Shown piece by piece: positions 38,326 through 64,000 of a DNA stretch of 64,000 bases. Each line of letters opens with the position of its first letter. Position 1 is the stretch's first letter. The DNA is from an uncultured Pseudomonadota bacterium (lineage in GTDB: Bacteria > Myxococcota_A > Polyangia > Fen-1088). The notes under the pieces were generated by a model. It saw nothing but the letters and a program-made list of their open reading frames with translations. It was not told the origin of the DNA and did no database searches. The position numbers were made by a program, and so were the translations under genes. The DNA lies in the NCBI GenBank assembly GCA_963847705.1, contig CAWKBC010000010.1:133890-197889 (forward strand). Direction: 5' to 3'.

Positions 38326-38411
38326 TGGTGCCGGAGACGAGACTTGAACTCGTAAGCCCGTGAAGGCGGCGGATTTTGAGTCCGCTGCGTATACCATTTC
38401 GCCACTCCGGC
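38326..38411 (-). tRNA. tRNA-Leu(CAA)
   Basis: 86 nt: acceptor GCCGGAG/CTCCGGC, anticodon arm GCGGA-CTCAAAA-TCCGC, long variable arm, T-loop TTCAAGT, encoded ACCA. Confidence 0.97.
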
Positions 38412-45972: not shown

Positions 45973-45984
45973 GCAGTCACACGC

Positions 45985-46022
45985 GCGGGATTAACTCAGT
46001 TGGTAGAGTGTCAGCTTCCCAA
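45985..46022 (+). pseudogene. 5' half of tRNA-Gly(CCC), truncated at the anticodon loop (attL of island)
   Basis: GCGGGAT-TA-ACTC-AGTTGGTA-GAGT-G-TCAGC-TTCCCAA; the expected GCTGA, T-arm and 3' acceptor strand do not follow. Confidence 0.88.
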
Positions 46023-47284: not shown

Positions 47285-47615
47285 CTGGTCTCCGGCCCGA
47301 GCGGCGCGCGTGCCCTGGAGACCAGGACAGACGGAAACGCTCGGCAACGGCATCGTTGTCGATCTCCGAGACGCTGTCTCGGAAATCTCGCGCGGCCGAC
47401 AGCTGAGATAAAAGCGCCGACCGGTCCGGAGCCTGTCCACCGAAACTCAGCGTGCGGAGCGCCATTTTTGGAGTGTACCGCGGGCTCCCGCGCGAGGTCC
47501 CGAGACAGTTGACCGCAATTCCCCGCGGTGCGCCCGCGACCCGACCACAGTCGCGACGGCGCACGACCGTGGTCCCCTTCCCGCAGGCCCCGGCTGATGC
47601 GACGATGCGCTCGCT

Positions 47616-50130
47616 GTGTCCCGCGAGGATGAGCTTGCCGCCCAGATAGAAGAGACGGAGGCCGAGTTGGCCGCTCTTGGCTATGCACGAGAGCAGACCC
47701 TGGCTCGATTGGCGGCGCTTCGGGCCTCCAGCTCTACATCTGGTGGCGCACCACCGCAGCTCCGGCTCCCGATCGTAAACAGTACTCGCGCTCCACGAAC
47801 CGGGGCCGAGAAGATCCGCCTGTTCCGAACATTGTTCCGCGGTCGTACCGACGTGTTCCCAAAACGGTGGGAGAACGCAAAGAAGGGACGGAGTGGCTAC
47901 GCGCCGGCTTGCGCCAACGAATGGGTGCGGGGCGTCTGTGAGAAACCCAAGGTCAAGTGCGGCGAGTGCCCGCACCAGGCGTTCATCACGGTCGACGACC
48001 GAGTCATCGCCGACCACCTGGGCGGCAAGTACACCGCTGGCGTCTATCCTCTCTTGTCCGACGACACGTGTTGGTTCGTCGCCGTGGACTTCGACAAAGC
48101 GTCCTGGAAGGACGACGTCGGCGCATTCGCGGAGACGTGTCGGGGGCACGCGCTGTCTCCCGCCATCGAGCGGTCGCGATCGGGCAACGGAGCGCACGGC
48201 TGGTTCTTCTTCACGGCACCCGTTCCTGCGCGTGACGCCAGGGACATGGCGTCATTCTTGCTCACCGAGACGATGCGGCTGCGACGAGAGCTGAATCTCG
48301 AATCGTACGATCGTCTCTTCCCCTCGCAGGACACGCTCCCCCAGGGTGGATTCGGGAATCTCATCGCACTGCCGTTCCAGTTTCACCCTCGGAAGGTCGG
48401 GCACAGCCTGTTCGTCGATGACCGGTTCGAGGCGCTTCCATGGGAACAGCAGTGGCAATTCCTCGCTGACATCGAACGAGTCGGGGAGGATCGCGTTCGT
48501 ACCCTTGCGAGAGAGGCGGTGCGCACGGCGCGCGTGCTCGCAGTTCCGGCGATCCCCGACGCGGAGGACGAAGACGACGAGCCCTGGAAGCCGGCGAAAT
48601 CCTCAAGCGGCGACGACGAAGCTCCCATTCCTGGTGCCGCCGGAGGTCAAGGCGGTTCTCGCCCAACGACTCTTCATAGACAAACAAGAGCTACCGTCCC
48701 CGCTGGTGTCGCGCCTCCGACGGCTTGCGGCGTTCCAGAATCCCGAGTTCTACAAGCGTCAGAAGCTCCGACTTTCGACGGCGCGAACTCCCCGCATCGT
48801 CGTCTGCGCCGAGGATCTGCCCAAACACCTCGCACTCCCGCGCGCCTGCACTGGCGACGTTCGGAGGCTTCTCGAAGACAACGGCTCGCGTCTCACGTGC
48901 GACGACCAGCGCAATCGCGGACGGCATGTCGCTCTGTCATTCCAGGGCACCCTAACGCCCGAGCAGCAGGACGCGGTTCAGGGGATGCTGCCGCACGACC
49001 TGGGCGTGCTCGTGGCGCCGCCGGGTGCAGGAAAGACGGTGATGGGCGCCTACTTGGTCGCGGCGCGCGGGGTCAATACTCTCGTCCTGGTTCACCGTCG
49101 TCCGCTGCTCGAGCAGTGGGTCAACCAGCTCGCCCTCTTTCTGGGCGTCGATCCTGCCGAGGTCGGGCGGATCGGCGGTGGCAAATCGCGACCGACCGGG
49201 ATGCTGGACGTCGCGATGATTCAGAGCCTCGTCCGCGACGGGCAGGTGAGCGAAGCCGTCGGCGACTACGGCCAGGTCATCGTCGACGAATGCCATCACG
49301 TGCCCGCCGTGTCGTTCGAGCGTGTCCTGGCGTCCGCCCGAGCGCAATACATCGTCGGGTTGACCGCCACGCCCCGACGGCGAGACGGGCACCATCCCAT
49401 CGGCGCGATGCAGCTCGGGCCGGTGCGGCACGTCATCAGCGGCAAAGCGCAGGCGGCGGCGCGCCCCTTCGAGCACAAGTTGATCGTCCGGGAGACGGAG
49501 CTGGCCGTCGCTGAGGAGAATCCGGCGATCCACACGATCTATCGGACCGTCGCCGGGGACCGCGCGCGTGGAGAGCTCATCGCCCGCGACGTGGGGCTGG
49601 CACTCGACGAGGGCCGATGCCCGATCGTGTTGACCGAACGAAAGGACCATCTGGAGCTTCTCGCTGACTTGATCGGAGGCGTCTGTCCAAGAGTCGCGGT
49701 CTTGCGTGGCGGGGCGGGATCGGTACGACGTGCGCGATCGGCGACGCAGTCCCTATCTGGCGCTGGCCCTCGCGTCATCGTCGCGACGGGTCGCTACGTG
49801 GGGGAGGGGTTCGACGATCCCGCGCTCGACACGCTGTTCCTGGCGATGCCGATCTCGTGGAAGGGGACCGTGATCCAGTACGCGGGGCGAATCCAGCGCC
49901 TCCACGCAGGGAAGCGTGAAGTCCGAATCTACGATTACGTCGACCGCAACATCCCAATGCTCGATCGCATGTTCCGGCGCCGCCTCGCCGGCTACCGGTC
50001 GATCGGATACGTGGAGGCAGATCTGCCTCCGGGCTACGGAGAGGCGGACGACGACTGGACCCTTGGACGCGGTTGGGCGGACGACCTGGACGAGGATGAC
50101 GCAGGCGAGATGAAGGCCCCGGAGGAGTAA
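47616..50130 (+). pseudogene. TOTE-type archaeo-eukaryotic primase domain + DEAD/DEAH (ResIII-like) helicase, split by a +1 frameshift near 48630
   Basis: Frame 1: FRGRTDVF, YAPACANEW, AVDFD, ERSRSGNGAHGW, GGFGNLIALP. Frame 2: AFQNPEFY, APPGAGKT, DECHH, GLTATP, EGFD, QYAGRIQR. Confidence 0.8.
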
Positions 50131-50134
50131 CCGC

Positions 50135-52069
50135 ATGGAGAACCAACCGGGCCCTGCCCTGATCCGCGTCCTGCGTCCCGAGCTCGCCGACCTCATAGCG
50201 GCTGGAGAGGTCGTCGAGCGGCCTGCTTCTGTGGTCAAGGAGCTCTGCGAGAACGCCATCGACGCCGGCGCCACCAAGATCGAAGTGACCGTCAAAGAGG
50301 GGGGGCGCAGGCTGATCCAGGTGGTGGACAACGGGTCCGGCATGACCGCCGAGGACGCCAGGCTGGCGCTTCGGCGGCATGCCACGTCCAAGCTCACGTC
50401 GGCAGAGCAGCTGTGGGGCATAGCGACGTTGGGGTTCCGTGGCGAGGCGCTCCCCTCCATCGCGGCAGTCTCGAGGCTGTCGCTCACTACCAAGCCCGCC
50501 TCAGCGGCGGCCGGGGTGCAGCTGGATGTAGTCGGCGGTCATGAGAAGGGATTCCAACAGGTAGGCGTGCCGCAAGGGACACGAGTCGAGATCGGCGACC
50601 TCTTCTTCAATACGCCCGCCCGACTGAAGTTCCTGAAGAGCGACATCACGGAGACGGCGAGTGCGACCGAAACCGTGTTGCGCCTGGCCATTGGTCACCC
50701 AGACGTCCACTTTCGATTGATGGTCGACGGTCGACAGGCGTTCGATTTGCCGGTTCACCGGTCACGGGGGGAGCGCGTGCGTGCGGCCCTGGCCCGCCGC
50801 GGTGCTTCGGCGCTGCACGAGGTGCTCGTAGGAGATGGCCCCTACAGGTTCAACCTGTTTCTGGCTCCGCCCGAGGAATCAACCACCTCATCAGGATCCA
50901 CGTTTCTTTTCGTCGGACGCCGCTATGTTCGGGACCGATTCCTGCTTCGGGCAGTGGTCGAAGGCTGCGGAACGGCGCTCGAGAAGGGGCGCTATCCGCT
51001 CGCCGTTCTCTTCCTCGAAGCTCCGCCTGATGAAGTCGACGTCAACGCCCACCCTCAGAAGACGGAGGTGCGGTTCCTAAAGGCGGAGATGGTCGCGGCG
51101 GCCGTGAAGCGAATTGTGGCCGATGCGCTAACAAAGGCGCCTTGGGCTGCGCGGGCGTCACGGTCTCACAGCTCCGTGGGAGCTCTGGTGGGCGAAGGCA
51201 AGGTGAAGCCCACTGCTTTCGGCTCTTCGCGGGCGGCATTGCGCGCCCAAGTCGAAGCCAATCTTTCGCCGCCCAAAACGGGTCCCTCGTATGGGTCAGC
51301 ATCGACGCCAACTGTGGGCGCCGCACCATCCGGCGCGCTCGCCGCTTCTCCCCGACCTCAAGCCGAGCAACGGGCCCTCCCCTTACAAGCCGGCGAAGAG
51401 CCCGCCCGCCCGAGGCCACCCTCGCCTCAGACTGTTCAAATACCGGCTCCCATCCAGCCACCGGCGGTACCGCCTCAGGGTGAGCGAAAGACGCCCTTAC
51501 TAAAGCCAGCTGGGCCGGTTCGCTTGCTCCAATCCTGGGGCGCCTATCTCCTGTGCGTTCTGGACCAAGATCTCTACATCGTGGACCCGCACGCCGCCGC
51601 CGAGGTGGTGACTCGGCGCACCCTACACGCGGAACTCGCGGCAAACGAAGTGGCGACGGTTCCGCTTTTGAACCGGGCTCCTCTCCGATTGGATCCTCAA
51701 CTGAAACTCGTGTTTCGGCACAAGCAGCCCCTCTTGAACATACTGGGCTTCGAATTCGCCGAGACTTCCGGGAAGGTCGTTCTGACTGCTGTCCCGCGTT
51801 GCCTGCAGTTCGTACCGCCGGGGTCACTGGTGGCGGCCGTCCTGCGGGAGGTACTGGCGGCTGCGACCGTTTCCCCGGAGCGTCGGATCAACCTCCTGGT
51901 CGATGTGATGGCGGCGCAACGCCGCGAATATGGCAGCGAGGAGCCTGCTCGCCTCGCTTCCACCCTTACAAAAGAGGATCTGACTGCCACGTGCCGTGGG
52001 GGAACCCGGGTGGCCATGAAGGTGACCCCCGAGGATGTCGCCGCCTCCTTGGCCGCGATCAGTCGATGA
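50135..52069 (+). CDS. mutL: MutL paralogue (intact GHKL ATPase + transducer; divergent C-terminus with degenerate endonuclease motif)
   Basis: IAAGEVVERPASVVKELCENAIDAGA, DNGSGM, RHATSK, LGFRGEALPSIA, VDVNAHPQKTEVRF; DPHAAAEVVTRR replaces DQHAxxExxxxE. Confidence 0.88.
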   Translation: MENQPGPALIRVLRPELADLIAAGEVVERPASVVKELCENAIDAGATKIEVTVKEGGRRLIQVVDNGSGMTAEDARLALRRHATSKLTSAEQLWGIATLGFRGEALPSIAAVSRLSLTTKPASAAAGVQLDVVGGHEKGFQQVGVPQGTRVEIGDLFFNTPARLKFLKSDITETASATETVLRLAIGHPDVHFRLMVDGRQAFDLPVHRSRGERVRAALARRGASALHEVLVGDGPYRFNLFLAPPEESTTSSGSTFLFVGRRYVRDRFLLRAVVEGCGTALEKGRYPLAVLFLEAPPDEVDVNAHPQKTEVRFLKAEMVAAAVKRIVADALTKAPWAARASRSHSSVGALVGEGKVKPTAFGSSRAALRAQVEANLSPPKTGPSYGSASTPTVGAAPSGALAASPRPQAEQRALPLQAGEEPARPRPPSPQTVQIPAPIQPPAVPPQGERKTPLLKPAGPVRLLQSWGAYLLCVLDQDLYIVDPHAAAEVVTRRTLHAELAANEVATVPLLNRAPLRLDPQLKLVFRHKQPLLNILGFEFAETSGKVVLTAVPRCLQFVPPGSLVAAVLREVLAAATVSPERRINLLVDVMAAQRREYGSEEPARLASTLTKEDLTATCRGGTRVAMKVTPEDVAASLAAISR

Positions 52070-52145
52070 CCGTCGATATCTGCGCCGAGGGTGGGACGAG
52101 TAGGTGGAAGACAAAGCGTCGACCAACCGAATCTGGTCTAACCAC

Positions 52146-52245
52146 GCCACATTCAGGTGGCTCACAGGCCGCTCGTGAGCGGCCCCCAATCCCGGCCGCT
52201 TTGAGCGGCCCACACAGCGCCTCCCCCCGGGCTCTACCGGGGGAT
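52146..52245. other. cluster of four hairpins between convergent mutL and res
   Basis: GCCAC-attcag-GTGGC; GGCCGCTC-gt-GAGCGGCC; GGCCGCT-ttg-AGCGGCC; CCCCCGG-gctcta-CCGGGGG. Confidence 0.6.
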
Positions 52246-52315
52246 GCGTTAGACATCTGAAATGTTGGGTGGGCTTGAAATGATCGCCATTCGATTCGAG
52301 TCAGGCGGAGCGCCG

Positions 52316-55300
52316 TCAACCCACGACTTCGAGAAACTCCGCGATCACGCGGATCTCACCGTCCTCCCGGCGCATCCGGATCGGGTTGAACCCAGGGTTG
52401 TCGGGGCGGAGCTCGATATCGGCGGCGCCTCCGTCGGGGCTCGTCGCCGTTACGCGCCAGCGCTTCAGGGTGTAGCTGCCGCCGGTCTCTGGGTCGGTGG
52501 CGTCTCGGAGCTGGACGACGACGCGGCGGCCGTCGAGGGCGGTGGCGGCGGGGGGGACCCCTTCGGGGAAGAGGCGGAAAAGGGCCCAGCTTCCGTCGGG
52601 GATAGCGGTTTCCATCGAACGGCCGACGACCTTGGCCACGAACATTCGCCGGTCGAGGATGCGCTGGGCGTGGACCTTGGCCCAGCCGATGATCTCCGGG
52701 GCCTGGGAAGGGCTGAACGCGCCGGCGGCGGCGGCAAGGTCGTGGACCGGGACGGCCTCGCGGAACTGCTGGTCGGGCGGCACGCTTTTCACGATGTCCA
52801 GCTTTGACCGATCGCGCTTGAGCGAATCCATCTCGGGGAGCAGCGGCAGCGTTTCAAGGTGTCGCAGCAGGTCGCCGATCTCCTTGCGCGACTGCCGGCC
52901 CCACCACTTGATGTCCTCGCGGCCGATCGGCTCGTTCTCCAGCAGGAGGAGGTAGTGCCACGGCTCGCGGTCGTGTTCGGTCAGCAACTCGCAGTAGCGC
53001 TGGCCCCGGGCGGCCTTTGTGCGGTCGCGGTCGTCGAATCGCCCCTTCACCTCGATGATGAAGTTGTGGAATACCTCGCCAATGCGCGCCCGCGCGATGA
53101 AGTCGGGGTAATAATGCGAAACCAGGCCCTGCCAGTCGTACTCGATGAAGTAGCCGACACCGCTACGGTGGTTGTAGACCCAGCCGGTGACGTCCTTGGC
53201 GGCGTCCAGCAACCGCGCCACGGCCTCCTCGTCGGCGTTCTCCAGCGCGGCGCGCTCGAAGCAGCTCTTTGTGGGTGCGTCGAAGACGTGTTTCTTCAGG
53301 GCCTGGTACCCCTCCAACTCTTCGGCGTGGCGCTCTGACATCTGCGCCTCGGACGCCCGCCGCTCGGCGATGATCGCCTCCTGCAGCGGCTGGAGCAGGG
53401 CTTTCTTGACCGCGCCAACGACGTCGGCGCGCGCCAGGTTGCCCAGGGCGATCCGCGCGTAGGCGCCCTCTGGGATCCGGTCGAAGTACAGCGGCAAGCC
53501 CTTCGGCACGGAGAACGTCTTCCGCTCCAGGAACTCCCGGACGATGCCCTTGACCGCGGTCTTGTGGTGAAAGCTGGCCCGCATCTCCCGCAGAATCGGG
53601 ACCGCGATCGCCACCTCGATCACGTGGTCGAAGTCCCGGTACGACGGCATCTCGGGGACCACGAACGACTGGCCTTCGGTCTCTGCCAACGCGAGCGCTT
53701 CTTTCAGGTACGTCTTGATCTCGGTATCGGCGATCTCCTCCATCCATGCCAAACGGGGCATCAACGCCGGGATGCTGGCGGTGTCGAACGACTTTCGCCA
53801 GTCCGGCACGACTTCGCGCAGTCCCTCGAAACGCACCAACCGCACGCCATGCGCCTGACGTTCCCTCAGGTCGGCCTTCTGCAGAATCGGTACGTACTCG
53901 CGCGCGTGCTCGATCTCGTCGGAAGAGCGTTCCTCGATGATGTCCTGGATCTGATCGAGGATCGCCTTGAACGAAGGATGCTCGATGACGTACAGCTCCT
54001 CCGTCTTCATGAAGGCAGCGCCTTCCTCGTCGAGGATCGGCGGGTGCATCTTGCGCAGACCGCGGCCGAGGGTCTGTTCCGTCAGGGTGCGTGAATCGCA
54101 CGGGCGCAACGGGACGATGACCTTGACGTTGCGGACGTCCCAGCCCTCTTTCAGCATCATGACGCTGACGACGACGTTGTAGGGGTTGGGCTCCATGACC
54201 GGGCGCCCATCGGCGTCGAGCATGGGCCTGCCGTCCTCGTCCACCTTCGGGATCTCATCGTGGTCCACGGCGTTCACCGCCCGCCGGACGCCCTCCCACG
54301 CCTCATCGTTGCGTTGCTCCTTCTCGCCGATGTGAATCTCGACGATGGTGGATCGGGGGACGCCGCCCTCACGATCGACGAATAGAGGCGCATCCTCTAC
54401 CTTTCCGCGATAGCCGGTGACGGCACGCCCGTCGAGTTCGTCGCGTGTGGCCTCGCCATAGCGCAAGAAGTTGGCGACCTCGCGCGCCTCATTCCGGTCG
54501 TTGGCCAAGATGAAGAGGATTGGCTTCCGCTTGTCGCCCTCGTCGGCGAGCTGCTCCTTCACTTTCTTCCAGCGCTCGATGCCGGTGACCAGCAGGTTGC
54601 GATACTTCTCCCAGGCGTTGGGTTGCCCCTCGCGGACCGGCGCCTCGATGTCCCCGGTCTTCTGGTTCCTCACCTCCACCCTCTCCAGCACCGGTCGCTT
54701 GACGATGCCGTCGCGGATGGCGTCCGCCAGCGGGTAATAGACCGTCGTGTGCCTGAAGAGATCCGCCGGCCGAAACTGCTTGTCCGCCTTGGCGCCGCCC
54801 TTGGACGACTTCGAAGCCTTTGCAGTCGAGCCGGTCTCCTCGAACAGGGTGGCCGATAGATCGACCTGCAACGCCACGCGCCCCGTCGCTTCGCCGTCAC
54901 CGTTCAGGCGCCGGATCGATCGGATCCAGGCCATGGCCGTGGCCTCGTCGTCGGTCTGGCTGACGCGCGCCTTGTCGCGGGCCTTCTGCTCGAACTGCGC
55001 GTGCCGGGTCTCGTCCCACACGTGGTGGGCCTCGTCGTTCAGGACCAACAGCCCACGCGATTGAGCGAATCGGTCCAGCAGCGGTGTCGATACGGCCTCC
55101 AGACGGTCGGGCTCGCCCACATGGAACAGGAGATCGATCTGCTGCTGCTCCCACTGCCCCAGCGTCGGTGCGTCCTCGCTCTCGCGCAGAAGCTGGTGAT
55201 AGTTCGTGACCACCAGCGCACCCTGGGAGGGATCCAGCACGCGCGGGCAAGTGGTGGGGTCGTAGACCTTGAGGTTCCACATCTGGTCGAACGCGGGGGG

Positions 55301-55924
55301 CACCACGGGATCGCCCAGGAACACCGAGGTCCCGCCATAAGGCGGGCAGAAATCCTGAAGCAACCGATCCTTCACGAACAGGTTCGGCGCGATCAGGATC
55401 GCGTGCGGACCGAAACCGAGCGGACTCTCCGCTTCGTTGATCGCGTTCAGGTAAGACCACGCGATGAGCAGGCTCATCATCTTGGTCTTGCCCGAGCCCG
55501 TCGCCAGTTGGCCGCCCAGCTTCGCCCACGGATCGCGCTGGGGACCCAGCGGATCCACGCCGGCCAGCTGGTAGAGATCCTCCGTGCGCCGCAGGCCGCG
55601 AACCTCGTAGAGGTAGATGAACGTCTCGACCAGCCTGCGCTGGTGCGGCCAGTACTTGAAGGTCAGCGTTCCACGCGGTCCTCCCAGCAAGTGCGGCTCA
55701 TGCCTGAACCAGTGCTGGAGGAGGTGCATTGTCGTATCGCTGACGGGGCGATCGCCCTCGGCGCCCGGCTGGTAGCGCGGCGCCTGTTGCGGGTATGCCT
55801 CGGCCGCCCGGCCCAACGTGAAGCCGCGCCAGGCGTCAACGCGACGCTGGATCTCGCCGATGACACGTGCCTGGCCCCGCAGATCGCCGAGGTCGGGTGA
55901 TCGATCGAAGGGGCCGGCCATCAC
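52316..55924 (-). CDS. res: type III restriction Res subunit (SF2 helicase + PD-(D/E)xK nuclease) with C-terminal S24/LexA-like peptidase domain
   Basis: LATGSGKT, NDEAHH, LSAT, MLKEGWDVRNV, QTLGRGLR; YPDF...IIEVKG; S24: LAAAAG, GRSME, YTLKR, LRPDNP. Confidence 0.88.
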   Translation of the reverse strand: MMAGPFDRSPDLGDLRGQARVIGEIQRRVDAWRGFTLGRAAEAYPQQAPRYQPGAEGDRPVSDTTMHLLQHWFRHEPHLLGGPRGTLTFKYWPHQRRLVETFIYLYEVRGLRRTEDLYQLAGVDPLGPQRDPWAKLGGQLATGSGKTKMMSLLIAWSYLNAINEAESPLGFGPHAILIAPNLFVKDRLLQDFCPPYGGTSVFLGDPVVPPAFDQMWNLKVYDPTTCPRVLDPSQGALVVTNYHQLLRESEDAPTLGQWEQQQIDLLFHVGEPDRLEAVSTPLLDRFAQSRGLLVLNDEAHHVWDETRHAQFEQKARDKARVSQTDDEATAMAWIRSIRRLNGDGEATGRVALQVDLSATLFEETGSTAKASKSSKGGAKADKQFRPADLFRHTTVYYPLADAIRDGIVKRPVLERVEVRNQKTGDIEAPVREGQPNAWEKYRNLLVTGIERWKKVKEQLADEGDKRKPILFILANDRNEAREVANFLRYGEATRDELDGRAVTGYRGKVEDAPLFVDREGGVPRSTIVEIHIGEKEQRNDEAWEGVRRAVNAVDHDEIPKVDEDGRPMLDADGRPVMEPNPYNVVVSVMMLKEGWDVRNVKVIVPLRPCDSRTLTEQTLGRGLRKMHPPILDEEGAAFMKTEELYVIEHPSFKAILDQIQDIIEERSSDEIEHAREYVPILQKADLRERQAHGVRLVRFEGLREVVPDWRKSFDTASIPALMPRLAWMEEIADTEIKTYLKEALALAETEGQSFVVPEMPSYRDFDHVIEVAIAVPILREMRASFHHKTAVKGIVREFLERKTFSVPKGLPLYFDRIPEGAYARIALGNLARADVVGAVKKALLQPLQEAIIAERRASEAQMSERHAEELEGYQALKKHVFDAPTKSCFERAALENADEEAVARLLDAAKDVTGWVYNHRSGVGYFIEYDWQGLVSHYYPDFIARARIGEVFHNFIIEVKGRFDDRDRTKAARGQRYCELLTEHDREPWHYLLLLENEPIGREDIKWWGRQSRKEIGDLLRHLETLPLLPEMDSLKRDRSKLDIVKSVPPDQQFREAVPVHDLAAAAGAFSPSQAPEIIGWAKVHAQRILDRRMFVAKVVGRSMETAIPDGSWALFRLFPEGVPPAATALDGRRVVVQLRDATDPETGGSYTLKRWRVTATSPDGGAADIELRPDNPGFNPIRMRREDGEIRVIAEFLEVVG

Positions 55925-57045
55925 TTGTCGTCCGGAGCGCGTGCCGCTAGCTGTTCCTCGATGAAGCGCTGCATCTCCTCTTTCTTCGGCAGCTCCAGCA
56001 GGTACTTGGACACGAACAGGCCGTTATCGATGCCAGCCAGGGCGTATTCCACGAGGGCGTGATCCTTCTGCGTGCAGAGGAGGATGCCCACCGGCGGGTT
56101 GTCGCCCTCGGTCATCATGTTCTTTCGGTACCAGCTCACGTAGGTGTTCAGCTGGCCGATGTTCTCGTGATTGAACGCGGCGGCCTTCAGCTCGACCAGG
56201 ACGTGGCACTTGAGGACTCGATGGTAGAAGACCAGGTCCACGAAGTTGTGGATGTCACCGATCAGGATGCGCTTCTGACGGGCCTCGAAGCAGAAGCCGT
56301 GGCCCAGCTCGATGAGAAATTCTTGCAGCTTGTCGAGGAGCTGATCTTCGAGGTGGGATTCGCTCATGACCTCCTGGGGCTTCAACCCCAGGAACTCGAA
56401 GACGTAGGGGTCGCGAATATTCAGTGCCGTCTGTGCACGCTCGGCGCCCTGCTGAGTCAGGGCCGCCAACTTCCCCTTGTCCTTCGAGAGCCCGGAGCGC
56501 TCGTAGTAGAGGCTGGCGATCTGCCGCTTCAGCTCGCGGACGGACCAATTTCCCCGAATGCACTCCAGCTCATAGAAGGCGCGCTTGGTCTCGTCGTCGC
56601 ATTGCAGCAGCTCGGCGATGTGGGTGAATGAGAGCTTGGTCAAGATTTCGGCAGCGCCGACGCCCAATTGTGGAGTCGGTGACTCCCGAATGTTGGCGTC
56701 GGTTCCTGGGAGGAGCGTCTTCGCCAATTGTGGAGTCAGCGACTCCACGATCTGGGGGTAGGTCAGATAGAACTGCCGGTAGCGGTACAGCTCGCGCCGG
56801 TCGCACCGCGACACTCCCATCCGGGTCAGCGACTCGGAGAGCCGGTCCAGGAGCTTCTCTCCGTACCGCTGGCGGTCGACGCCGCGACGCTCGTACTCTT
56901 CGATGTGCAGGCCGATCAGCCAGTTGCGCAGGGTAAGGCTCGAATTGACCGCTCGGGAAGCCTGCGCCGATAGCTCGGCGTGCGCCTCCCCTATCGCCGT
57001 GACCAGGCGATCAAAAGATAGAGGGGATTTCGCCGGTGTCGTCAT
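55921..57045 (-). CDS. yhcG: YhcG/DUF1016 PD-(D/E)xK nuclease family protein
   Basis: RNWLIG, LSFTH, NWSVRELKRQI, RDPYVFEFL, ELGHGFCFEARQKR, VDLVFYHRVLKCHVLVELK, GQLNTY. Confidence 0.93.
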   Translation of the reverse strand: MTTPAKSPLSFDRLVTAIGEAHAELSAQASRAVNSSLTLRNWLIGLHIEEYERRGVDRQRYGEKLLDRLSESLTRMGVSRCDRRELYRYRQFYLTYPQIVESLTPQLAKTLLPGTDANIRESPTPQLGVGAAEILTKLSFTHIAELLQCDDETKRAFYELECIRGNWSVRELKRQIASLYYERSGLSKDKGKLAALTQQGAERAQTALNIRDPYVFEFLGLKPQEVMSESHLEDQLLDKLQEFLIELGHGFCFEARQKRILIGDIHNFVDLVFYHRVLKCHVLVELKAAAFNHENIGQLNTYVSWYRKNMMTEGDNPPVGILLCTQKDHALVEYALAGIDNGLFVSKYLLELPKKEEMQRFIEEQLAARAPDDK

Positions 57046-59822
57046 TTCACCTCGACGTTCACGGTGGCGATGCCGTCGTTCCCGAAGACGTCCGTGACGC
57101 GCGCGGCGATGCGGTACTGGCCGGGGTCGGTGTATTTGAGCTCGGCCACGAAGACCAGGGGCTCGGTCTCGCCCTTCGACTTGCGCAGGCGGAAGCTCTG
57201 CCAGTCGGTCTCGAAGATGGGCTTGTCGTCCTGGCCGACGCGGGTCCCGTAGTTCCAATCGACGGCCCAGAAGTCCACGAACTTCTGCCAACTGTCAGCC
57301 TTCTGCAGCCACTTCTGCAGCTCGACTTCGCGCGCGCTCCACTTTTCGGCCTCGGCCTCGAGCTTCCGGCGCGCGGTGGGAGTCGTGGCATCGGTGACGG
57401 GCTTCAGGACTGGGCGCTGGCTGGCCAGGAACGACTCGATGTCCACCTCGCAGCGTTCGAGGTGCAGCTTGACGATGCGGCCGGAGAGCTGGGGCGACAG
57501 CACGATCGACAGCGGCGCGTAGAAGGCTGGAATCGCCATCGACTCGATCGGTGCGTCGGGTGGACGGTTGAGAAGCTGCATCCGGCGCCGGACCTCGTCG
57601 ATGGCCTGGGCGGGAATCACGCGGATGGTGACCGTCACGCCGGTCTTGGCCTGAACGTCCTCCTTCTCGCTGCCCGACAACGTGTCGAAGTCGGCGGACA
57701 GAATTGTCACGGCGTGGGTGTTGGTGTGCTGGGCCTCGCGCGCGATGTTCCAGACCTGGCCTGAAGAGATCGGACCGTCCAGCGGGCCGACGTGGATCCA
57801 CGTGTTGCCCTTGCGGCCGTGGAGGAGCGCGGACTGCGCGACCGGCTCACCACCGAAGACGCGGATCATTTCGTCGCGGTAGACAGAGCGACGTGTTTGG
57901 AAGTCTTGCCAGGCCTCGGCGCGCTGGTAGACGCCCATATTCTCGACGGTGAAGGGGCGAACGTTGAAGGTGCCGGGACTGCGCTGCGCCTTCTCCTTGC
58001 GCTCGATGTTCTTGCACTTGTCGCACTCGACGTAGTCGTGCTGCGCCTTCTCGGGTGGACGGGGCTGACCGTGCAGTTGGATCAGGCGCTTGCGGGCGAG
58101 GTGGATGGCGTATTTCCCGTTGTCGATTCCGATCCAGCGACGACCGAGGCGTTCTGCGGCCTCGGCGGTGGTGCCGGAGCCAAGGAAACAGTCGAGGACC
58201 AGGCCGTTGGCTGGAGACGAAATCGCAACGATACGTTCCAGCAGAGAGAGAGGCTTCTGAGTCGGATATCCGAGCCCCTCAATTGCCATTGGATTTACCG
58301 GCGGAACGTCATCCCAGAGGTTCTGAATAGGCGTTCCGTCCTTTTCCTCAAGAAAGCTGCGACGCTGCAGCCTCTTCGTCTTGTCGACGGGGAAATCTAT
58401 ACGGCCCTCCGCGTCCATCTGCTGCATCGTCTCCGGTGAAACCGCCCATCCATTGGCCGGGGGCGGGTAACCCTTGTAGACGTAACGGAGGTTAGGCCGA
58501 GGATTCGGACTTGTCAGATTGTCCAACCTATAGAAACGGCCCCTGTCGTCTTTGAATTTGAACCGCCCCACGTACTCCGGATCGTGGGCCGTTGTTTGCC
58601 CTTTGAAAAAGGGAGTCTCACCGCAGGAATAGGCCAGAAGGCTATCGGTGACTGAACCTAGCTTATTGAACGTACCCATGTACCCGGTGCGTCGTTTCCA
58701 CGTAATCTCATTTTGGAAATGCTCATACCCAAATACTTCATCCATCAGCACCTTGACGTAGTGGACCGCGTGCCAATCTAGGTGCACGTAGATGCTGCCC
58801 GTCGGCCCCAGCAGTTCCTTCAGTAGCTCCAGCCGCCGTCGCAGCATCGTCAGGAAGCTATCCAGCCCCTGCCGCCACGTGTCTTTGTAGGCGAGAATCT
58901 CGACCAGTGACGGCTCCTTCTTCACCTGGACGTGCGCCTCGTCGTCGAGGTCGATGTCCACGGTGTTGTCGGCCCGGAAATCGTTGTTCACCATGAACGG
59001 CGGGTCGATGTAGACGAGGTCGACCTTGCCGCGGTAGCGCCAGTCACGCGTGACGGGATCTTTCTCGTCCAGTAACGTTTGCAGCGCCACCAGGTTGTCG
59101 TTCGTCCAAATGAGCCGGTTCGCCGGCAGCCCTCCGCCCTCTCGCGCCTCAACGGTCCGCGTATCGATACCGCTCAGCACAGCGCCGCGATCCACCGCGC
59201 GCCCGGGCCGCACGATCTCCACCACCTGAGAGGGGACCGACAGCGCCGCCTCCTTGCGCCACATCCCCTGCCACGCCAGCCGCGGCTTGCGCGCGGTAAC
59301 CTCCAACGTGATTTCGCGGCTGGATGGCGCGCGGGCCGTTGGCCCTGTCGAGAACGAAGGTACCGGCGCTGGAGCTGGCTGATCGCCGGCCGTTTCCGAT
59401 TGGACTGGCGGTGTGGGCGTGGGATTGGGCACGGCGCGCGCGACCGGCGCGACCCAGGGAAGCGACGGCTGGGCCGGCGACGGCGGGGTGAGCGCGAACG
59501 GGACGTCAACGCCCGCCTGGCTGCCCTTCTTGCCCTTCGGCGCGGGGCGTTCGTCGGCGCCCGACGCAGCCAGTATCCGATCGATGATGATCTGCTTCTC
59601 CCGTCCTTCGGCAGGCTCGCCGACAGCGAAGCAGATCGACTTCAGCGTGTCGCGCGACAGCGAAGGCAAAATGCGCTCCAGGGTGGCCCGCTTACTACCC
59701 GCGACCGTATCGATTAGCTCGTCCAGGCGCATCCCGGTGCTGACGTCCAGCTCCAGCCCGCGCCCGATCTCCAACAATTCGGCCCTGGTCAGGGCGCCCA
59801 GCGCGCGTCGCTTGAACGTCAT
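57042..59822 (-). CDS. mod: type III Mod subunit, beta-class N6/N4 DNA methyltransferase with N- and C-terminal extensions
   Basis: Motif IV YIDPPF precedes motif I DCFLGSGTT; SIYVHLDWH, YPTQKP; C-terminal WAVDW...VTDVFGND; ATGA overlap with yhcG. Confidence 0.9.
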   Translation of the reverse strand: MTFKRRALGALTRAELLEIGRGLELDVSTGMRLDELIDTVAGSKRATLERILPSLSRDTLKSICFAVGEPAEGREKQIIIDRILAASGADERPAPKGKKGSQAGVDVPFALTPPSPAQPSLPWVAPVARAVPNPTPTPPVQSETAGDQPAPAPVPSFSTGPTARAPSSREITLEVTARKPRLAWQGMWRKEAALSVPSQVVEIVRPGRAVDRGAVLSGIDTRTVEAREGGGLPANRLIWTNDNLVALQTLLDEKDPVTRDWRYRGKVDLVYIDPPFMVNNDFRADNTVDIDLDDEAHVQVKKEPSLVEILAYKDTWRQGLDSFLTMLRRRLELLKELLGPTGSIYVHLDWHAVHYVKVLMDEVFGYEHFQNEITWKRRTGYMGTFNKLGSVTDSLLAYSCGETPFFKGQTTAHDPEYVGRFKFKDDRGRFYRLDNLTSPNPRPNLRYVYKGYPPPANGWAVSPETMQQMDAEGRIDFPVDKTKRLQRRSFLEEKDGTPIQNLWDDVPPVNPMAIEGLGYPTQKPLSLLERIVAISSPANGLVLDCFLGSGTTAEAAERLGRRWIGIDNGKYAIHLARKRLIQLHGQPRPPEKAQHDYVECDKCKNIERKEKAQRSPGTFNVRPFTVENMGVYQRAEAWQDFQTRRSVYRDEMIRVFGGEPVAQSALLHGRKGNTWIHVGPLDGPISSGQVWNIAREAQHTNTHAVTILSADFDTLSGSEKEDVQAKTGVTVTIRVIPAQAIDEVRRRMQLLNRPPDAPIESMAIPAFYAPLSIVLSPQLSGRIVKLHLERCEVDIESFLASQRPVLKPVTDATTPTARRKLEAEAEKWSAREVELQKWLQKADSWQKFVDFWAVDWNYGTRVGQDDKPIFETDWQSFRLRKSKGETEPLVFVAELKYTDPGQYRIAARVTDVFGNDGIATVNVEVK

Positions 59823-59941
59823 CTTCGGCGCGGGATGATACACCGCCGGGGCCAGGCCCCCCGAACTCCCCGAGCGGGGGTCGCGGGTTGCTGACCGGGC
59901 ATTTGGCGATACCATGGCGCCGGCGACGGAGGCCGGCCCCT

Positions 59942-60886
59942 GTGAACATCCCCGACTACCAGTCCCTCATGCTGCCCCTCCTAGAGGCGCTTGCCGATGG
60001 CCGGGAACGCCTCGTCAGGGACGTGCGCGAGGACATAGCCGCCAAGTTTGGTCTGGGAGCGGCAGAGAGGGAGGCGCTGTTGCCCAGCGGCAAGCAGCCC
60101 ATCTTCGACAACCGCATCGGCTGGGCCAAGACCTACCTGGCCAAAGCCGGGCTGGTCTCGTCGGTCAGGAGGGGCGTCTATCAGCTTACCGATCGCGGTC
60201 GCTCCGTCGTCGCGTCGAAGCCGCCGCGGGTCGATGTGGCCTACCTGGCACGGTTCCCCGAGTTCGAAGAGTTCCGCCGGAAGGCTGAGAACGAGACCGA
60301 GGGCGTCGATAACCTGCCGAAGAGCGATGCCGGCCCCGACACTATCGCTGTGGGGGCTCCCGCGTCGACGCCCCAGGAATCTCTGGACGCCGCCTATCAT
60401 CAACTCAGGCGCGCAGTCGAGACCGAGCTGTTGGCGGCCGTCAGGGGTGCTTCGTTCCGCTTCTTCGAGCGTTTGGTGGTCGAGCTGCTGGTGAAGATGG
60501 GGTACGGCGGGTCCCTCAAGGATGCCGGCAAGGCCATCGGTCGCAGCGGAGACGACGGTCTGGACGGCATCATCAAGGAGGACCACCTTGGCCTGGACGC
60601 GATCTACGTCCAGGCGAAGCGATGGGAACGAACCGTCGGCCGCCCCGAGGTCCAGGCGTTCGCCGGCAGTCTCGAAGGCGTGCGCGGGCGCAAGGGCGTG
60701 TTCATCACGACGTCCACCTTCTCGAGCGACGCCCGCGAATACGTCTCGCGGATCGAAAAGAAGATCGTCCTGGTCGACGGCCAACAGCTCGCATCGCTGA
60801 TGACCGACTTCGGAATCGGCGTCACACCGGTGAGCACCTACGAGGTCAAGCGTGTGGATGGTGACTATTTCTCGGAGGAGGGTTGA
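59942..60886 (+). CDS. mrr: Mrr type IV restriction endonuclease (Mrr_N + Mrr_cat)
   Basis: IPDYQSLMLPLL, LPSGKQPIFDNRIGWAKTYL, FFERLVVELL..MGYGG, DDGLDGII, YVQAKRW, KGVFITTS. Confidence 0.95.
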   Translation: MNIPDYQSLMLPLLEALADGRERLVRDVREDIAAKFGLGAAEREALLPSGKQPIFDNRIGWAKTYLAKAGLVSSVRRGVYQLTDRGRSVVASKPPRVDVAYLARFPEFEEFRRKAENETEGVDNLPKSDAGPDTIAVGAPASTPQESLDAAYHQLRRAVETELLAAVRGASFRFFERLVVELLVKMGYGGSLKDAGKAIGRSGDDGLDGIIKEDHLGLDAIYVQAKRWERTVGRPEVQAFAGSLEGVRGRKGVFITTSTFSSDAREYVSRIEKKIVLVDGQQLASLMTDFGIGVTPVSTYEVKRVDGDYFSEEG

Positions 60887-60923
60887 TCGGTGGGCAGACA
60901 TACCTTTCACCGAGCGCCGCCCC

Positions 60924-62096
60924 GTGGCTGACCACCCTGATCTATTTCCGTACGCCGTCTACACCACGCTGGCGGGGACGGTCTTCACCCAGGCGCTTGC
61001 CGCCGGAGGTCTGACGTTCAAGGAGGGAAAGCGATGGACCGGCGCAACGCACCTGCTCGATGAGGCGCGCGCACAAGGCCAGCGGGTTGCGTTGCTGGTC
61101 TCGGACGGGGCGTACGACTGCTCGACGCTGATCGGCTGGGCCGTGCTGGATCGGGTTGAGCTAGCGGACGACGGAACGCGGGTCTGGGCGAGCGAGCTGC
61201 GACCCCTAAAACGACACCGAACGCAGGAGCTGCTTCTACGCAAGAGTGGTCAGCCAATCGCCGAAGGTTTCATCCGCCCGTACGCACTCGTCCACACGCC
61301 TAGGTTCCTACCGGCCGGGTCTCCACGGCCGCTCGGACGCGCGGATGCTGGCGATCCCCCGACTGTCTTCAGCTTCGGGTACGAGGGCTGCGGCTCGGGC
61401 ACCGCGCGTCTCGTGGCCGCGGTCGACAAGGTCGAACGGGAGCGTGGATTCGAGCCGCCGCTGTGGGTCGACGCACGCGTCTCGCGCAGCGTCCGGGCGA
61501 TCGGGTTTCGCGAGAAGGCGTTCGAGCAGCTGCTCGGCTCAGCCCGCTACCTCTGGATGCGCGACCTCGGCAACGAGCGCGTCCAGCAGGGCAGAGGGGG
61601 GATCCAGATCCGTCGTCCCGAGGCCGTGGCCGATCTCCTGCGGCTCGCTCTCGATACACCGCGCCGACGGGTCATCTATTTCTGCTCGTGTGCGGGAAGC
61701 TCTGGCGAATGTCACCGCCACGAAGTGGGGCGCCTGCTCCTTCGCCATGCAAGAGCGGTTGGTGCCCGAATAGCGCGGGTCGAATGGCCCGGTGGCCAGC
61801 CTGCCACGCTGGCGCTCGATATTGCCTCCACCGCCGCGCTCAAACGAAAGACCATCGACACGCGCGGCTTCCTCGGAGAGGCAGAAGCGGCCGCAGTGCC
61901 GTGGGGATCGCACGGCATCCTGAGCGTGGCGAAGCAGGAGGCCGAGCACGTCCTGCTGGGCCCAGCCCTCTTCGGCGAAAAGCAGACGGTCCTGCGCGTC
62001 GTTGAGCACCTCGGTCCCGAGTCGCCCGGGGACCCGCTGTCCATCGCGCGCCGCTGGCGGAAGGCGCACGGGACTGACGTGCAGGCAGTCGGATGA
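60924..62096 (+). CDS. multi-domain protein: unknown N-terminal domain + DUF488-like domain + short C-terminal domain
   Basis: VFSFGYEG, VDAR..RS....GF, YLWMRDLGN, FCSC.....CHR match the DUF488 pattern; start uncertain. Confidence 0.65.
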   Translation: MADHPDLFPYAVYTTLAGTVFTQALAAGGLTFKEGKRWTGATHLLDEARAQGQRVALLVSDGAYDCSTLIGWAVLDRVELADDGTRVWASELRPLKRHRTQELLLRKSGQPIAEGFIRPYALVHTPRFLPAGSPRPLGRADAGDPPTVFSFGYEGCGSGTARLVAAVDKVERERGFEPPLWVDARVSRSVRAIGFREKAFEQLLGSARYLWMRDLGNERVQQGRGGIQIRRPEAVADLLRLALDTPRRRVIYFCSCAGSSGECHRHEVGRLLLRHARAVGARIARVEWPGGQPATLALDIASTAALKRKTIDTRGFLGEAEAAAVPWGSHGILSVAKQEAEHVLLGPALFGEKQTVLRVVEHLGPESPGDPLSIARRWRKAHGTDVQAVG

Positions 62097-62132: not shown

Positions 62133-64000
62133 CTAAAGATACTTCAACGGGCCACCGAGCCGACGCAGGAGCTCGATCTCGCCGTCCCGACCTTCGAGCC
62201 GGATCAATTTCTGTTCCTGGCCTTTGAGCCGGCCCTGCATCTCCTTACCCGGCGAGCTGAACGCGTAGCTGGCCGCTCGCTTTGCATAGGCGTCCCAGTC
62301 TCGTTTCTCCTTTGGTCGATCGGCTCGGGCGGCCTCCTTGATGGCGACGGCGATCGCGCCGCGGGAATGGCCGGTGACCGCCATTCGAACGGCGACCTCG
62401 GCGTCGAGCCGCGAAGGATCTGCGCGCCGCTGCGGCTGCTCTCGCATGATCTCGGCCAGATGGCGGCGATAGATCGCGGCCGGCGTCATGGACGTCGGTT
62501 GCGCCCGTGCCTGACGGTCCGGAGGGTCCGGTCTTCTCGTGGGCCGGAGGCGTTCGCGTTCTGCGGCGATCGCCTGCTGAAGGTTCGGGTTCGTGATCTT
62601 GAAGCCATGCTCGGCGGCCAGCTCGACGCAGGTCCGCTTGAATTGTTCGCTGCCGCGAACTGTGATGGCACCCCACTTCTGGGCGCTCAGCTGCAGGGCG
62701 GCCAGGACGCTTTCGCGTCGACCGCTGTCGTGGATGTCGATCGTTTTGCCGCGGTCGGTGAAGGCGGGTCCGCCTCGCGAGCCGCTCAAGTGATAGTGGA
62801 CCCTGCCGCCATCGACCACGGCGCTGAACGCCCGGATGTCCCGCGGCGCGGGTGGGTCGAATGTCGGTCCCTCGATGGTCGCCGGACGCCTCTCTCGGTG
62901 CCGCCACTTCTGGGCGTAGTCGCCCTTGAACCGGGACAGCCACTCCTCGCAGGAGGGAAAGCGACCCTTATTCCTTCGAAGGGCAGCCCGCTCCAGCTTA
63001 TGCCGGTCCCGCAGCTGGGCCTTTTCGCCCGCTTGGCGCGCCGCGAGCGTGCTCCGGAGGGCGTTGAGAAGCTCGCCCTTGCCCTTCCATGACCCGCCGA
63101 GGATGTCGGCTCGTTCCTGCCGATGCCGCTCGGCCGCGCGGCGCAGCTCCTTGCGCTGTTTGTCGATATTCAGCGCCCGGGCGGTGGCGCGCTCCTGGTA
63201 GTGCTTTCGCCGCTCCTCGGTGTACATCTGCAGCAGCGGCGATTTGGGCTCGAGGGAACGCGGAACGGACTGCGGCGTCGTGACCGTCGAGCCGGGCATG
63301 TACTCCCCGAGCCTCTTCTGAAGCGCCGACATGGAGCAGTCACGGCCGGCGGCGCTCGCTTTCACGGCCTGGTCGCCGACCCACAACACGGCGCCCGAGC
63401 CCTTCTTCTCGAACCGTATCCCCATGGGCGCGAGGGCTGCGTGCAGCTCTCGCCAGTTATGGACCCGCCTGATAAGCGGCGCGGCGTCTTCGATCGCGAC
63501 CCGCTCGGCGCTGCGCTCGCCGGCACGCTCCTCGAAGTCTCGCGCCCGAGCCGATGGCTGGCGCTCACCGTCCCCGCGGGGTCGCGCGCGCTCGGGCTCG
63601 CCATCCGGGCGAACGTCGTACAGAGGATGCGGCGCGGGCTCCCACCGCTGCCACAGCTCAATGCGAGCGATCGCCCGGTGCGCGATCTCATGGTCAAAGC
63701 CCTTGTTGACGGTGACGAGCCTTTCCGTCTCGGGGTTGACACGGTTCACGGCGACATGGACGTGCCAGATGTTCGTGTTGCGGTGGAGCGCATAGATCGC
63801 TTGATGCTCGGCGAGCCCCATCTCACCGAGGAACATCCTGACCGCTTCGTCGGCCTGTGCGGTGGTCGGCTGCTCGTTTTCCCGCCAGCTCAAGATCCAG
63901 TGCTGGACGGGCTGCGGGCTGCGCTTGGCGATCTCCGCGAGATCGATCATCTCCTGGACCTGGCTGTCGTGATCGATGTTTAAGAGGTTGAGCGCCCCCC
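62133..64000 (-). CDS. MOBP (TraI/MobA-type) relaxase with LPD7-like domain, 5' end beyond the window
   Basis: HWILSW..NEQP, ALHRNTNIWHVHVAVNRVNP (HUH); AFTDRG...AALQLSAQKWGAITVRGSEQFK; frame open to base 64000. Confidence 0.9.
   Translation of the reverse strand, partial: GALNLLNIDHDSQVQEMIDLAEIAKRSPQPVQHWILSWRENEQPTTAQADEAVRMFLGEMGLAEHQAIYALHRNTNIWHVHVAVNRVNPETERLVTVNKGFDHEIAHRAIARIELWQRWEPAPHPLYDVRPDGEPERARPRGDGERQPSARARDFEERAGERSAERVAIEDAAPLIRRVHNWRELHAALAPMGIRFEKKGSGAVLWVGDQAVKASAAGRDCSMSALQKRLGEYMPGSTVTTPQSVPRSLEPKSPLLQMYTEERRKHYQERATARALNIDKQRKELRRAAERHRQERADILGGSWKGKGELLNALRSTLAARQAGEKAQLRDRHKLERAALRRNKGRFPSCEEWLSRFKGDYAQKWRHRERRPATIEGPTFDPPAPRDIRAFSAVVDGGRVHYHLSGSRGGPAFTDRGKTIDIHDSGRRESVLAALQLSAQKWGAITVRGSEQFKRTCVELAAEHGFKITNPNLQQAIAAERERLRPTRRPDPPDRQARAQPTSMTPAAIYRRHLAEIMREQPQRRADPSRLDAEVAVRMAVTGHSRGAIAVAIKEAARADRPKEKRDWDAYAKRAASYAFSSPGKEMQGRLKGQEQKLIRLEGRDGEIELLRRLGGPLKYL

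Follow-up and report, generated by a model that had tools for sequence, protein, structure and literature searches.

The window analysed here, a 64,000-bp stretch from an uncultured bacterium of the Polyangia (assembly GCA_963847705.1, contig CAWKBC010000010.1, positions 133,890 to 197,889), contains a gene, res, for the restriction subunit of a type III restriction-modification (R-M) system, and this subunit carries behind its nuclease a tail related to the S24 autopeptidase domains of LexA, UmuD and the lambda CI repressor. Self-cleavage of S24 domains is a known switch for repressors and UmuD; what, then, does such a domain do on a restriction enzyme? The original prediction, made from the DNA sequence, was that self-cleavage on RecA filaments formed on single-stranded DNA (ssDNA), here called RecA*, switches restriction either off or on, and this interpretation is partly supported. 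The fusion is real and conserved, and Res represents an uncharacterised type III subfamily with an intact LexA-type autopeptidase tail; the regulatory principle is possibly new.

The res gene lies on the minus strand (52316..55921). A single frame without internal stops runs from a GTG at 55924 to the stop codon at 52316 (1202 aa), and the ATG at 55921 is the likelier start since it overlaps the stop of the preceding gene, yhcG, and the database copy of the protein has the corresponding length of 1201 aa. Residue numbers used here count from the GTG at 55924. The superfamily 2 (SF2) helicase/ATPase core (53975..55522, minus strand, approximately residues 135-650) contains the motifs ATGSGKT, DEAHH, SAT, KEGWD and QTLGRGLR, and Pfam places ResIII (PF04851, above cut-off) at residues 139-313. 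It is followed by a PD-(D/E)xK nuclease (52880..53287, minus strand, approximately residues 880-1015) with the catalytic residues D941, E958 and K960. A homolog search yielded 784 proteins among 7995 candidates, the best 120 of which, 119 of them non-self, were aligned. A141-T147, D297-H300, SAT and GRGLR, and likewise each of the three nuclease residues, were invariant in these 120 rows. The best PADLOC family was REase_III (E 3.7e-13), and the EcoP15I restriction subunit (PDB 4zcf, chain C) was both the top PDB sequence-profile match, although a weak one (E 1.9e-6), and the third-ranked Foldseek match of the Res model, with RadD ranked above it. The best NCBIfam model, the restriction endonuclease BPTD_3080 (NF046055), covered most of the length but reached 246.9 bits against a cut-off of 800, and NF012027 (PRK15483) reached 17.6 against 564; since Res remains under both cut-offs, it appears to form a separate but related Res subfamily. 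Judged by its sequence, 52316-55921 encodes a type III Res with an intact predicted helicase and nuclease, and with the methyltransferase gene mod upstream. The order mod-res and the combination of an SF2 ATPase with a C-terminal PD-(D/E)xK nuclease are as in EcoP15I, but the Res described here is distant from the EcoP15I subunit and carries the extra S24 tail.

The tail (52319..52783, minus strand, residues 1048-1202) is separated from the nuclease by a short linker of low confidence in the full-length model (predicted local distance difference test (pLDDT) 83 overall), the core of which, residues 1034-1038 (52811..52825, minus strand), has a pLDDT below 50. Pfam assigns residues 1090-1195 to Peptidase_S24 (PF00717) with 24.1 bits against a cut-off of 23.3, and the AlphaFold2 model of residues 1048-1202 has a pLDDT of 86. 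The Foldseek matches listed with E≤0.001 were exclusively S24 autopeptidases (LexA, lambda CI and UmuD), and the VIA search, which is independent of Foldseek, put LexA at the top with Z 13.8 (root-mean-square deviation 3.0, 129 aligned residues) and Z 13.6 (2.5, 119 aligned residues). An atlas search with the tail returned S24 clusters alone, and phmmer against PDB sequences gave weak LexA matches only (E 0.03-0.11). A Pfam scan of the Res protein found no helix-turn-helix (HTH) family, and the S24 domain sits behind a nuclease, unlike in the LexA and CI repressors. The three S24 hallmarks of the original prediction were found in the expected order and places: the predicted scissile bond A1067-G1068 (52721..52726, minus strand), the catalytic S1103 (codon 52618-52616) and the general base K1154 (codon 52465-52463). 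The position of the domain behind the nuclease was also correctly recognised, but its end was not, as 25 further residues follow LRPDNP (residues 1172-1177) before the stop. The Ala-to-Ser spacing of 36 equals that of the host LexA, and the longer Ser-to-Lys spacing (51 versus 37) is due to loop insertions. Cleavage at A1067-G1068 would leave Res ending in LAAAA and release a C-terminal product of 135 aa and 14.8 kDa.

The nearest known counterparts of the tail are the C-terminal domains of LexA, UmuD and lambda CI (S24, PF00717; PDB 3k2z, 1jhc, 8gms, 8gmt and 8gmu). LexA contacts the RecA filament through F111, L113, V153 and D150-E152, according to the open-access text of Gao et al. (PMC9926225). 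The corresponding positions in Res were placed by their offset from the catalytic Ser and Lys, without structure superposition. In this way, F1095 takes the position of F111 in the pocket formed with RecA loop L2, and A1097 that of L113 (both within 52616..52642, minus strand, together with S1103), while Y1151 takes the position of V153 and follows an acidic DPE loop with D1144 and E1146 (52463..52495, minus strand, together with K1154). The F111 position is Phe in 138/138 Res tails and the V153 position Tyr or Phe in 137/138, so two of the three hydrophobic pocket positions are kept, and the loop ahead of the lysine strand has 2-5 acidic residues in all 138. The tail is thus like LexA in its fold, Ser-Lys dyad, Ala-Gly site at LexA spacing, and a Phe and an aromatic residue at two pocket positions, and unlike it in being only around 20% identical, in its two loop insertions, and in lacking a DNA-binding repressor domain, being fused instead behind a 121-kDa nuclease-helicase. 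Because the fold, dyad, scissile site and part of the RecA pocket are present and conserved, RecA*-stimulated self-cleavage of the tail is a well-grounded prediction. A complex prediction of the tail with two copies of the host RecA gave a score of 0.00, that is no answer, and was counted neither way.

The tail is conserved along with the enzyme. It was present in 119/119 of the closest full-length homologs in the alignment of the best 120, which share 58-96% identity with Res, and in the 120 rows S1103 was kept in 119, K1154 in 118, A1067 in 112 and G1068 in 107. The conservation of G1068 (0.97) is on par with that of the structural core. Over all Res tails, an Ala-Gly or Cys-Gly site was kept in 120/138. 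The ratio of nonsynonymous to synonymous substitution rates (dN/dS) against the two closest GTDB loci was 0.09-0.10 for the tail and 0.07-0.08 for the helicase, and over 12 loci 0.09-0.46 for the tail, similar to the core, with dS near saturation for the distant loci. By these substitution rates, the tail is under purifying selection like the core.

Of 79 related GTDB loci, 37 were tailed, by title mostly from Myxococcota with some Planctomycetota and Acidobacteriota, and 42 were tail-less. The closest homologs with a taxon name point to a probable Myxococcota host for the window, and Myxococcus faecalis (P0062) is one of the cultured carriers. A mod homolog was found upstream in 65 of the 79, and 12 of the 14 misses have at most 2.1 kb of upstream sequence. 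The nearest tail-less Res proteins, from Chromatiaceae and another Pseudomonadota bin, are 50-53% identical, keep Mod, and either end 10-22 residues past the nuclease, about at the linker core of the tailed Res, or bear an unrelated extension of around 110 aa. These extensions, which replace S24 in two loci (L040:10980-11348 and L049:10990-11351), are similar to each other and have no Pfam match. No separate tail gene was present in the fetched flanks of the 42 tail-less loci, and none of the nine window proteins used as queries, besides Mod, turned out to be a conserved partner in the 79 loci. Since close relatives exist without it, the S24 tail is not needed to complete the enzyme and is, on comparison of these sequences, an add-on, presumably a regulatory one.

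The same tail occurs on many other enzymes. The original prediction had mentioned S24 tails on other helicases, and the range is in fact far wider, as defence enzymes of many classes carry this portable module. A search with the tail alone found 352 longer proteins, and 522 cluster representatives at E≤1e-10. Partner domains were scanned in 10 proteins of the list of 352 and in the 53 non-Res representatives whose tail is preceded by over 130 residues. The partners included type ISP enzymes, HsdR and HsdS of type I, type IIG enzymes, YprA/MZB helicases, Schlafen-group-3 helicases, OLD nucleases, PLD, HNH, UvrD and other SF2 helicases; among the 53 representatives, 15 had no other Pfam domain and one was an HTH repressor, a carrier that is a possible source of the module. 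Because the 140 tails initially classed as non-Res include short fragments possibly from this Res family, the clean count is the 50 tails with an identified partner, in which the dyad was kept in 50, an Ala/Cys-Gly site in 47 and Ala-Ala-Gly in 46. In a draw of genomes from the phylum, 45/301 held this tail, mostly at the end of frames longer than 800 aa, and 29 loci fetched from this sample had the dyad in 29 and the Ala/Cys-Gly site in 28. The tail was found in one of 72,556 plasmid records and was not found in the phage collection. Among individual cases, P0240, P0253, P0306, P0261 and P0090 show tails on HsdS, on an HTH repressor, as a tandem pair, and before a subtilase domain on one Res.

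In a tree of the tails, the classes of carrier do not separate but alternate (28 label changes with a minimum of 16), a pattern that repeated transfer of the module would fit. Another lineage of type III Res (L093), the core of which is around 24% identical to the window Res, is also S24-tailed; the tail tree hints at two independent fusions to type III Res, but the approximately unbiased test did not reject a single clade (p 0.097). The same-class genome that holds this lineage (G035, loci L090-L095) encodes three S24-tailed enzymes: two resemble HsdR of type I, and the third is a type III Res from a different lineage, located in a block of a UvrD-nuclease, Mod, Res-S24 and a sacsin-like protein (the UvrD and sacsin labels were read from the translation). 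Automatic annotations label some homologs as 'S24 family peptidase'. Full-text searches of the open-access literature for this fusion found no account of a restriction enzyme with an S24 domain; it may nevertheless be listed in domain-architecture tables, such as those of REBASE. In their main texts, the 2025 R-M review (PMC12707154) mentions neither LexA nor S24, the type III review (PMC3874151) does not mention LexA, and the type I review (PMC3874165) contains LexA once, in a reference title, and no S24 peptidase or LexA fusion. The main text of the preprint on ARMADA (YprA) (PMC12458937) does not mention S24, LexA or peptidase, S24 occurs only as a table number in the main text of Millman et al., and the open-access text of PMC8565304, which states the S24 hallmarks, discusses only repressors and UmuD. 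The tail belongs to a widespread S24 module on defence nucleases that is apparently undescribed.

How could such a tail regulate restriction? That RecA* triggers its cleavage with some functional effect is, in our estimate, probable. The specific route that we favour is more tentative, and we rate it slightly below an even chance: the cleavage exposes an Ala-Ala tag for ClpXP, and restriction is turned off during DNA damage. In this model, the tail would meet a RecA-ssDNA filament and cut itself at Ala1067-Gly1068, the cut would expose the ssrA-like LAAAA end, and Res would be delivered to ClpXP; alternatively, restriction could go off through loss of a tail-mediated contact between two Res subunits. 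The purpose would be to protect the chromosome at times when unmethylated sites in both orientations arise through repair, recombination or arrival in a new host, and the tail would then be an intrinsic equivalent of the restriction alleviation seen in type I systems. RecA* binding and self-cleavage are inferred from the S24 family; degradation or lost dimerisation, and the purpose, go a step further. The host has two recA genes, one lexA and two clpX genes.

Several considerations favour 'off'. Tail-less Res proteins stop just behind the nuclease and are still paired with Mod, so a Res that simply lost its tail should still be complete and active; switching it off would take a degron or a lost dimer contact. 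LexA cleavage exposes signals for ClpXP and Lon (open-access text of PMC6590174), and the LAAAA end fits the E. coli ClpXP consensus [L/F/Y/W]-[L/A/R]-L-A-A, as given in the accessible text of PMC10862746, at three of five positions and in addition at the first. Ala-Ala precedes Gly in 46/50 tails on other enzymes and in 71/110 Res tails outside a drifting subclade described below. An enzyme guided by methylation would have to be active when DNA enters. Type III enzymes methylate one strand, and their self-protection depends on the orientation of sites (open-access text of PMC12707154), an arrangement that repair synthesis or entry into a new host would presumably defeat. ClpXP already degrades type I enzymes in those states, as they are damped by this protease after damage and on transfer (open-access texts of PMC3874165, PMC12707154 and PMC11109961). 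Finally, a degron would act whatever protein it is attached to, in keeping with the occurrence of the tail on enzymes of unrelated structure.

Other observations weigh against this model. Ala-Ala also precedes Gly in 11/14 LexA-like controls of the phylum (20 stretches, of which 4 had no usable site and 2 were atypical, leaving 14 that were scored); Ala-Ala is thus the family default and not independent evidence for a degron, and the controls rule it out as proof of one. In the open-access text of PMC10862746, 39% of the tags ending in Ala-Ala were weak in a screen. In the putative RecA contact, the L113 position is Ala in 134/138 Res tails, and the conserved acidic DPE loop is shifted, lying 8-10 residues before the Lys versus 4-6 in LexA. 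A damage-triggered off-switch could be open to exploitation by phages that induce RecA*, and several of the enzymes with this tail look like nucleases of abortive infection, where 'on' would be equally plausible. The scissile site itself is not universal. Among 139 unique Res tails, site and dyad were both present in 118, the dyad without the site in 16, the site without the dyad in 3, and both were lost in 2; the serine was lost in 4/29 GTDB tails, including that of Sorangium sp. So ce1335. In one subclade of 28 members, Ala/Cys-Gly was lost in 12 and kept in 16, with the dyad kept in 27/28 and P2 always Lys, His or Arg. Fisher's exact p of 4e-6 for this loss overstates its significance, since kin are not independent and the clade was defined after the tree had been seen. 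Either cleavage became dispensable in these proteins while the domain retained another function, for example in dimerisation or docking, or some of the altered sites are still cut. This subclade thus speaks against a universal role of cleavage; the clade of the window Res kept the site in 15/16.

The leading alternative is that the tail acts uncut, by dimerisation or by docking to RecA filaments, so that it joins two Res subunits or brings Res to ssDNA-rich intermediates, with the catalytic residues being kept for structure or a secondary function. We consider this rather unlikely. It would account for the drifting subclade, where the tree shows several independent losses of the site, with the dyad, the RecA-pocket residues F1095 and Y1151, and the rest of the domain conserved. 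S24 domains do dimerise (open-access text of PMC6590174), type III cleavage needs the meeting of two complexes (accessible text of PMC12707154), and the two loci with a different tail of around 110 aa at the same place are in line with a non-proteolytic role. It does not account for the retention of the Ala/Cys-Gly site in 104/110 Res tails outside this subclade, at the frequencies given above on other enzymes and in the phylum sample, nor for the core-like conservation of G1068.

In the opposite scenario the tail would hold Res inactive, and RecA* cleavage would switch restriction on upon phage replication, prophage induction or arrival of conjugative ssDNA. The cleaved product would resemble the natural tail-less Res, UmuD is activated by the same chemistry (open-access text of PMC9926225), proteolytic activation of defence nucleases is documented (accessible text of bioRxiv 10.1101/2025.07.28.667249), and the tail is also found on OLD, Schlafen-like and YprA enzymes. 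However, a methylation-guided enzyme would have to act at DNA entry, ahead of RecA* formation, and steric inhibition would need to be re-invented on every unrelated carrier. Moreover, the tail is attached through a low-confidence linker and the released end is ssrA-like, so that we regard activation as distinctly unlikely.

A role in trans is very unlikely in our view. The dyad might cut another protein, be it a partner subunit or a host or phage protein, or the domain might serve as a decoy for phage anti-SOS factors; the 16 tails in which the dyad outlasts the scissile site, and the intermolecular cleavage by UmuD (open-access text of PMC9926225), would fit this, whereas the lack of a conserved partner gene other than Mod among the nine window proteins queried, and the retention by most tails of their own site at LexA spacing, would not. 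That the tail is just a leftover without function from the capture of a repressor gene, as the many tail-less relatives and a few decayed or frameshifted tails (L022, L043 and L047; the count of tail gains and losses on the tree treats the frameshifted L022 as tail-less) might suggest, is extremely improbable and largely refuted by a dN/dS near 0.1, retention across homologs of 58-96% identity, and recurrence on a dozen enzyme classes.

The favoured off-switch can be compared with known ways of controlling restriction. Res of EcoP1 and EcoP15 is reported to be controlled by delayed translation and stabilisation by Mod, without autoproteolysis (open-access texts of PMC3874151 and PMC12707154). 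Restriction alleviation of type IA and IB enzymes, such as that of EcoKI HsdR by ClpXP, would share both the proposed purpose and the protease with the window Res. However, the trigger for EcoKI is, in the accessible texts, the translocating state on unmodified sites, independent of LexA cleavage, whereas the window Res would contain its own trigger in the form of a RecA* sensor. The nuclease-protease pairs of Hachiman and AVAST systems (accessible text of bioRxiv 10.1101/2025.07.28.667249) likewise reuse a proteolytic switch across unrelated defence systems, but there a trypsin-like protease acts in trans and activates a metallo-β-lactamase nuclease, and S24 and LexA are absent from that text. 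We lean, with modest confidence, towards the broader view that this distinct S24 clade is a portable RecA* sensor on defence nucleases of every major class, which connects immunity directly with the SOS signal through the protein itself, bypassing both LexA and transcription, and which on type III Res serves as a self-destruct tag for autonomous restriction alleviation. If so, there would be a direct post-translational link from the DNA-damage signal to bacterial immunity, which would bear on the question, raised in publications on restriction alleviation, of whether and how systems other than the EcoKI type are damped by proteolysis. It would also imply that genotoxic stress or antibiotics open windows of weak restriction and hence of increased gene transfer, and would provide a small transferable degradation tag triggered by damage.

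The mod gene (57042..59915, minus strand) encodes an N6/N4 methyltransferase with DPPF ahead of FLGSGT (PF01555, E 3.5e-38), for which PADLOC gave both MTase_III (E 1e-66) and MTase_II (E 3.6e-68). Mod has an N-terminal extension consisting of a helical piece of around 105 aa without Pfam match, followed by a proline-rich linker, which is common to about half of the tailed relatives, the others starting around 180 aa later. Between mod and res, and overlapping both, lies yhcG (55921..57045, minus strand), a DUF1016 PD-(D/E)xK gene that is optional, being present in 2/79 related loci. A gene for an Mrr type IV restriction enzyme (59888..60886, plus strand) is treated here as a divergent neighbour of the system.

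The original prediction had considered conjugative entry, and a conjugative context is indeed present: a relaxase, a NikA-like protein and an integrase all belong to the integrated element that carries the system. The left attachment site is a 39-bp 5' half of tRNA-Gly(CCC) (45984..46022, plus strand) with an integrase gene adjacent, and the GC content drops from around 0.70 to 0.65 at 46 kb. The 39 bp are identical to part of the intact tRNA on contig C44 (4344-4382), which is preceded by an integrase gene, an HTH_17 gene and a NikA-like mobilisation gene (G000:C44:1-4420, L096). This suggests that the end of contig C10 joins the start of C44 and that a second copy of the tRNA 5' half arises on integration. 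At the other side of the system, a gene for a TraI/MobA(P) (MobP) relaxase of the element (62133..64000, minus strand) is cut off by the contig end. The tRNA-Gly half, integrase, NikA-like gene and relaxase together mark mod-yhcG-res as cargo of a mobilisable element that is integrated at tRNA-Gly, measures at least 22 kb and is spread over two contigs, whose join is inferred. Res was absent from 24 genomes of the same genus (68-95% complete). A general link of the tail to the relaxase of the window was ruled out, as this relaxase was found near 0/79 related loci.

The element carries further genes. A MutL-like gene (50135-52069, plus strand; TIGR00585, 446 bits, above cut-off) is convergent with res; in its product a long proline-rich middle part leads to a short C-terminal domain, and MutL is unusual as island cargo. 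A search of 52000-52400 for promoter and terminator consensus sequences found none. At 47616-50130 (plus strand), a TOTE-type archaeo-eukaryotic primase domain (PF22548) and an SF2 helicase are encoded in two frames that overlap and appear to be a single gene broken by a frameshift near 48400-48500. At the thresholds applied, Pfam, PADLOC and NCBIfam gave no match for two open reading frames of the island, 46181-47440 (minus strand, 419 aa) and 60852-62096 (plus strand, 414 aa). Outside the element, the window contains a tRNA-Leu(CAA) gene (38326-38411, minus strand).

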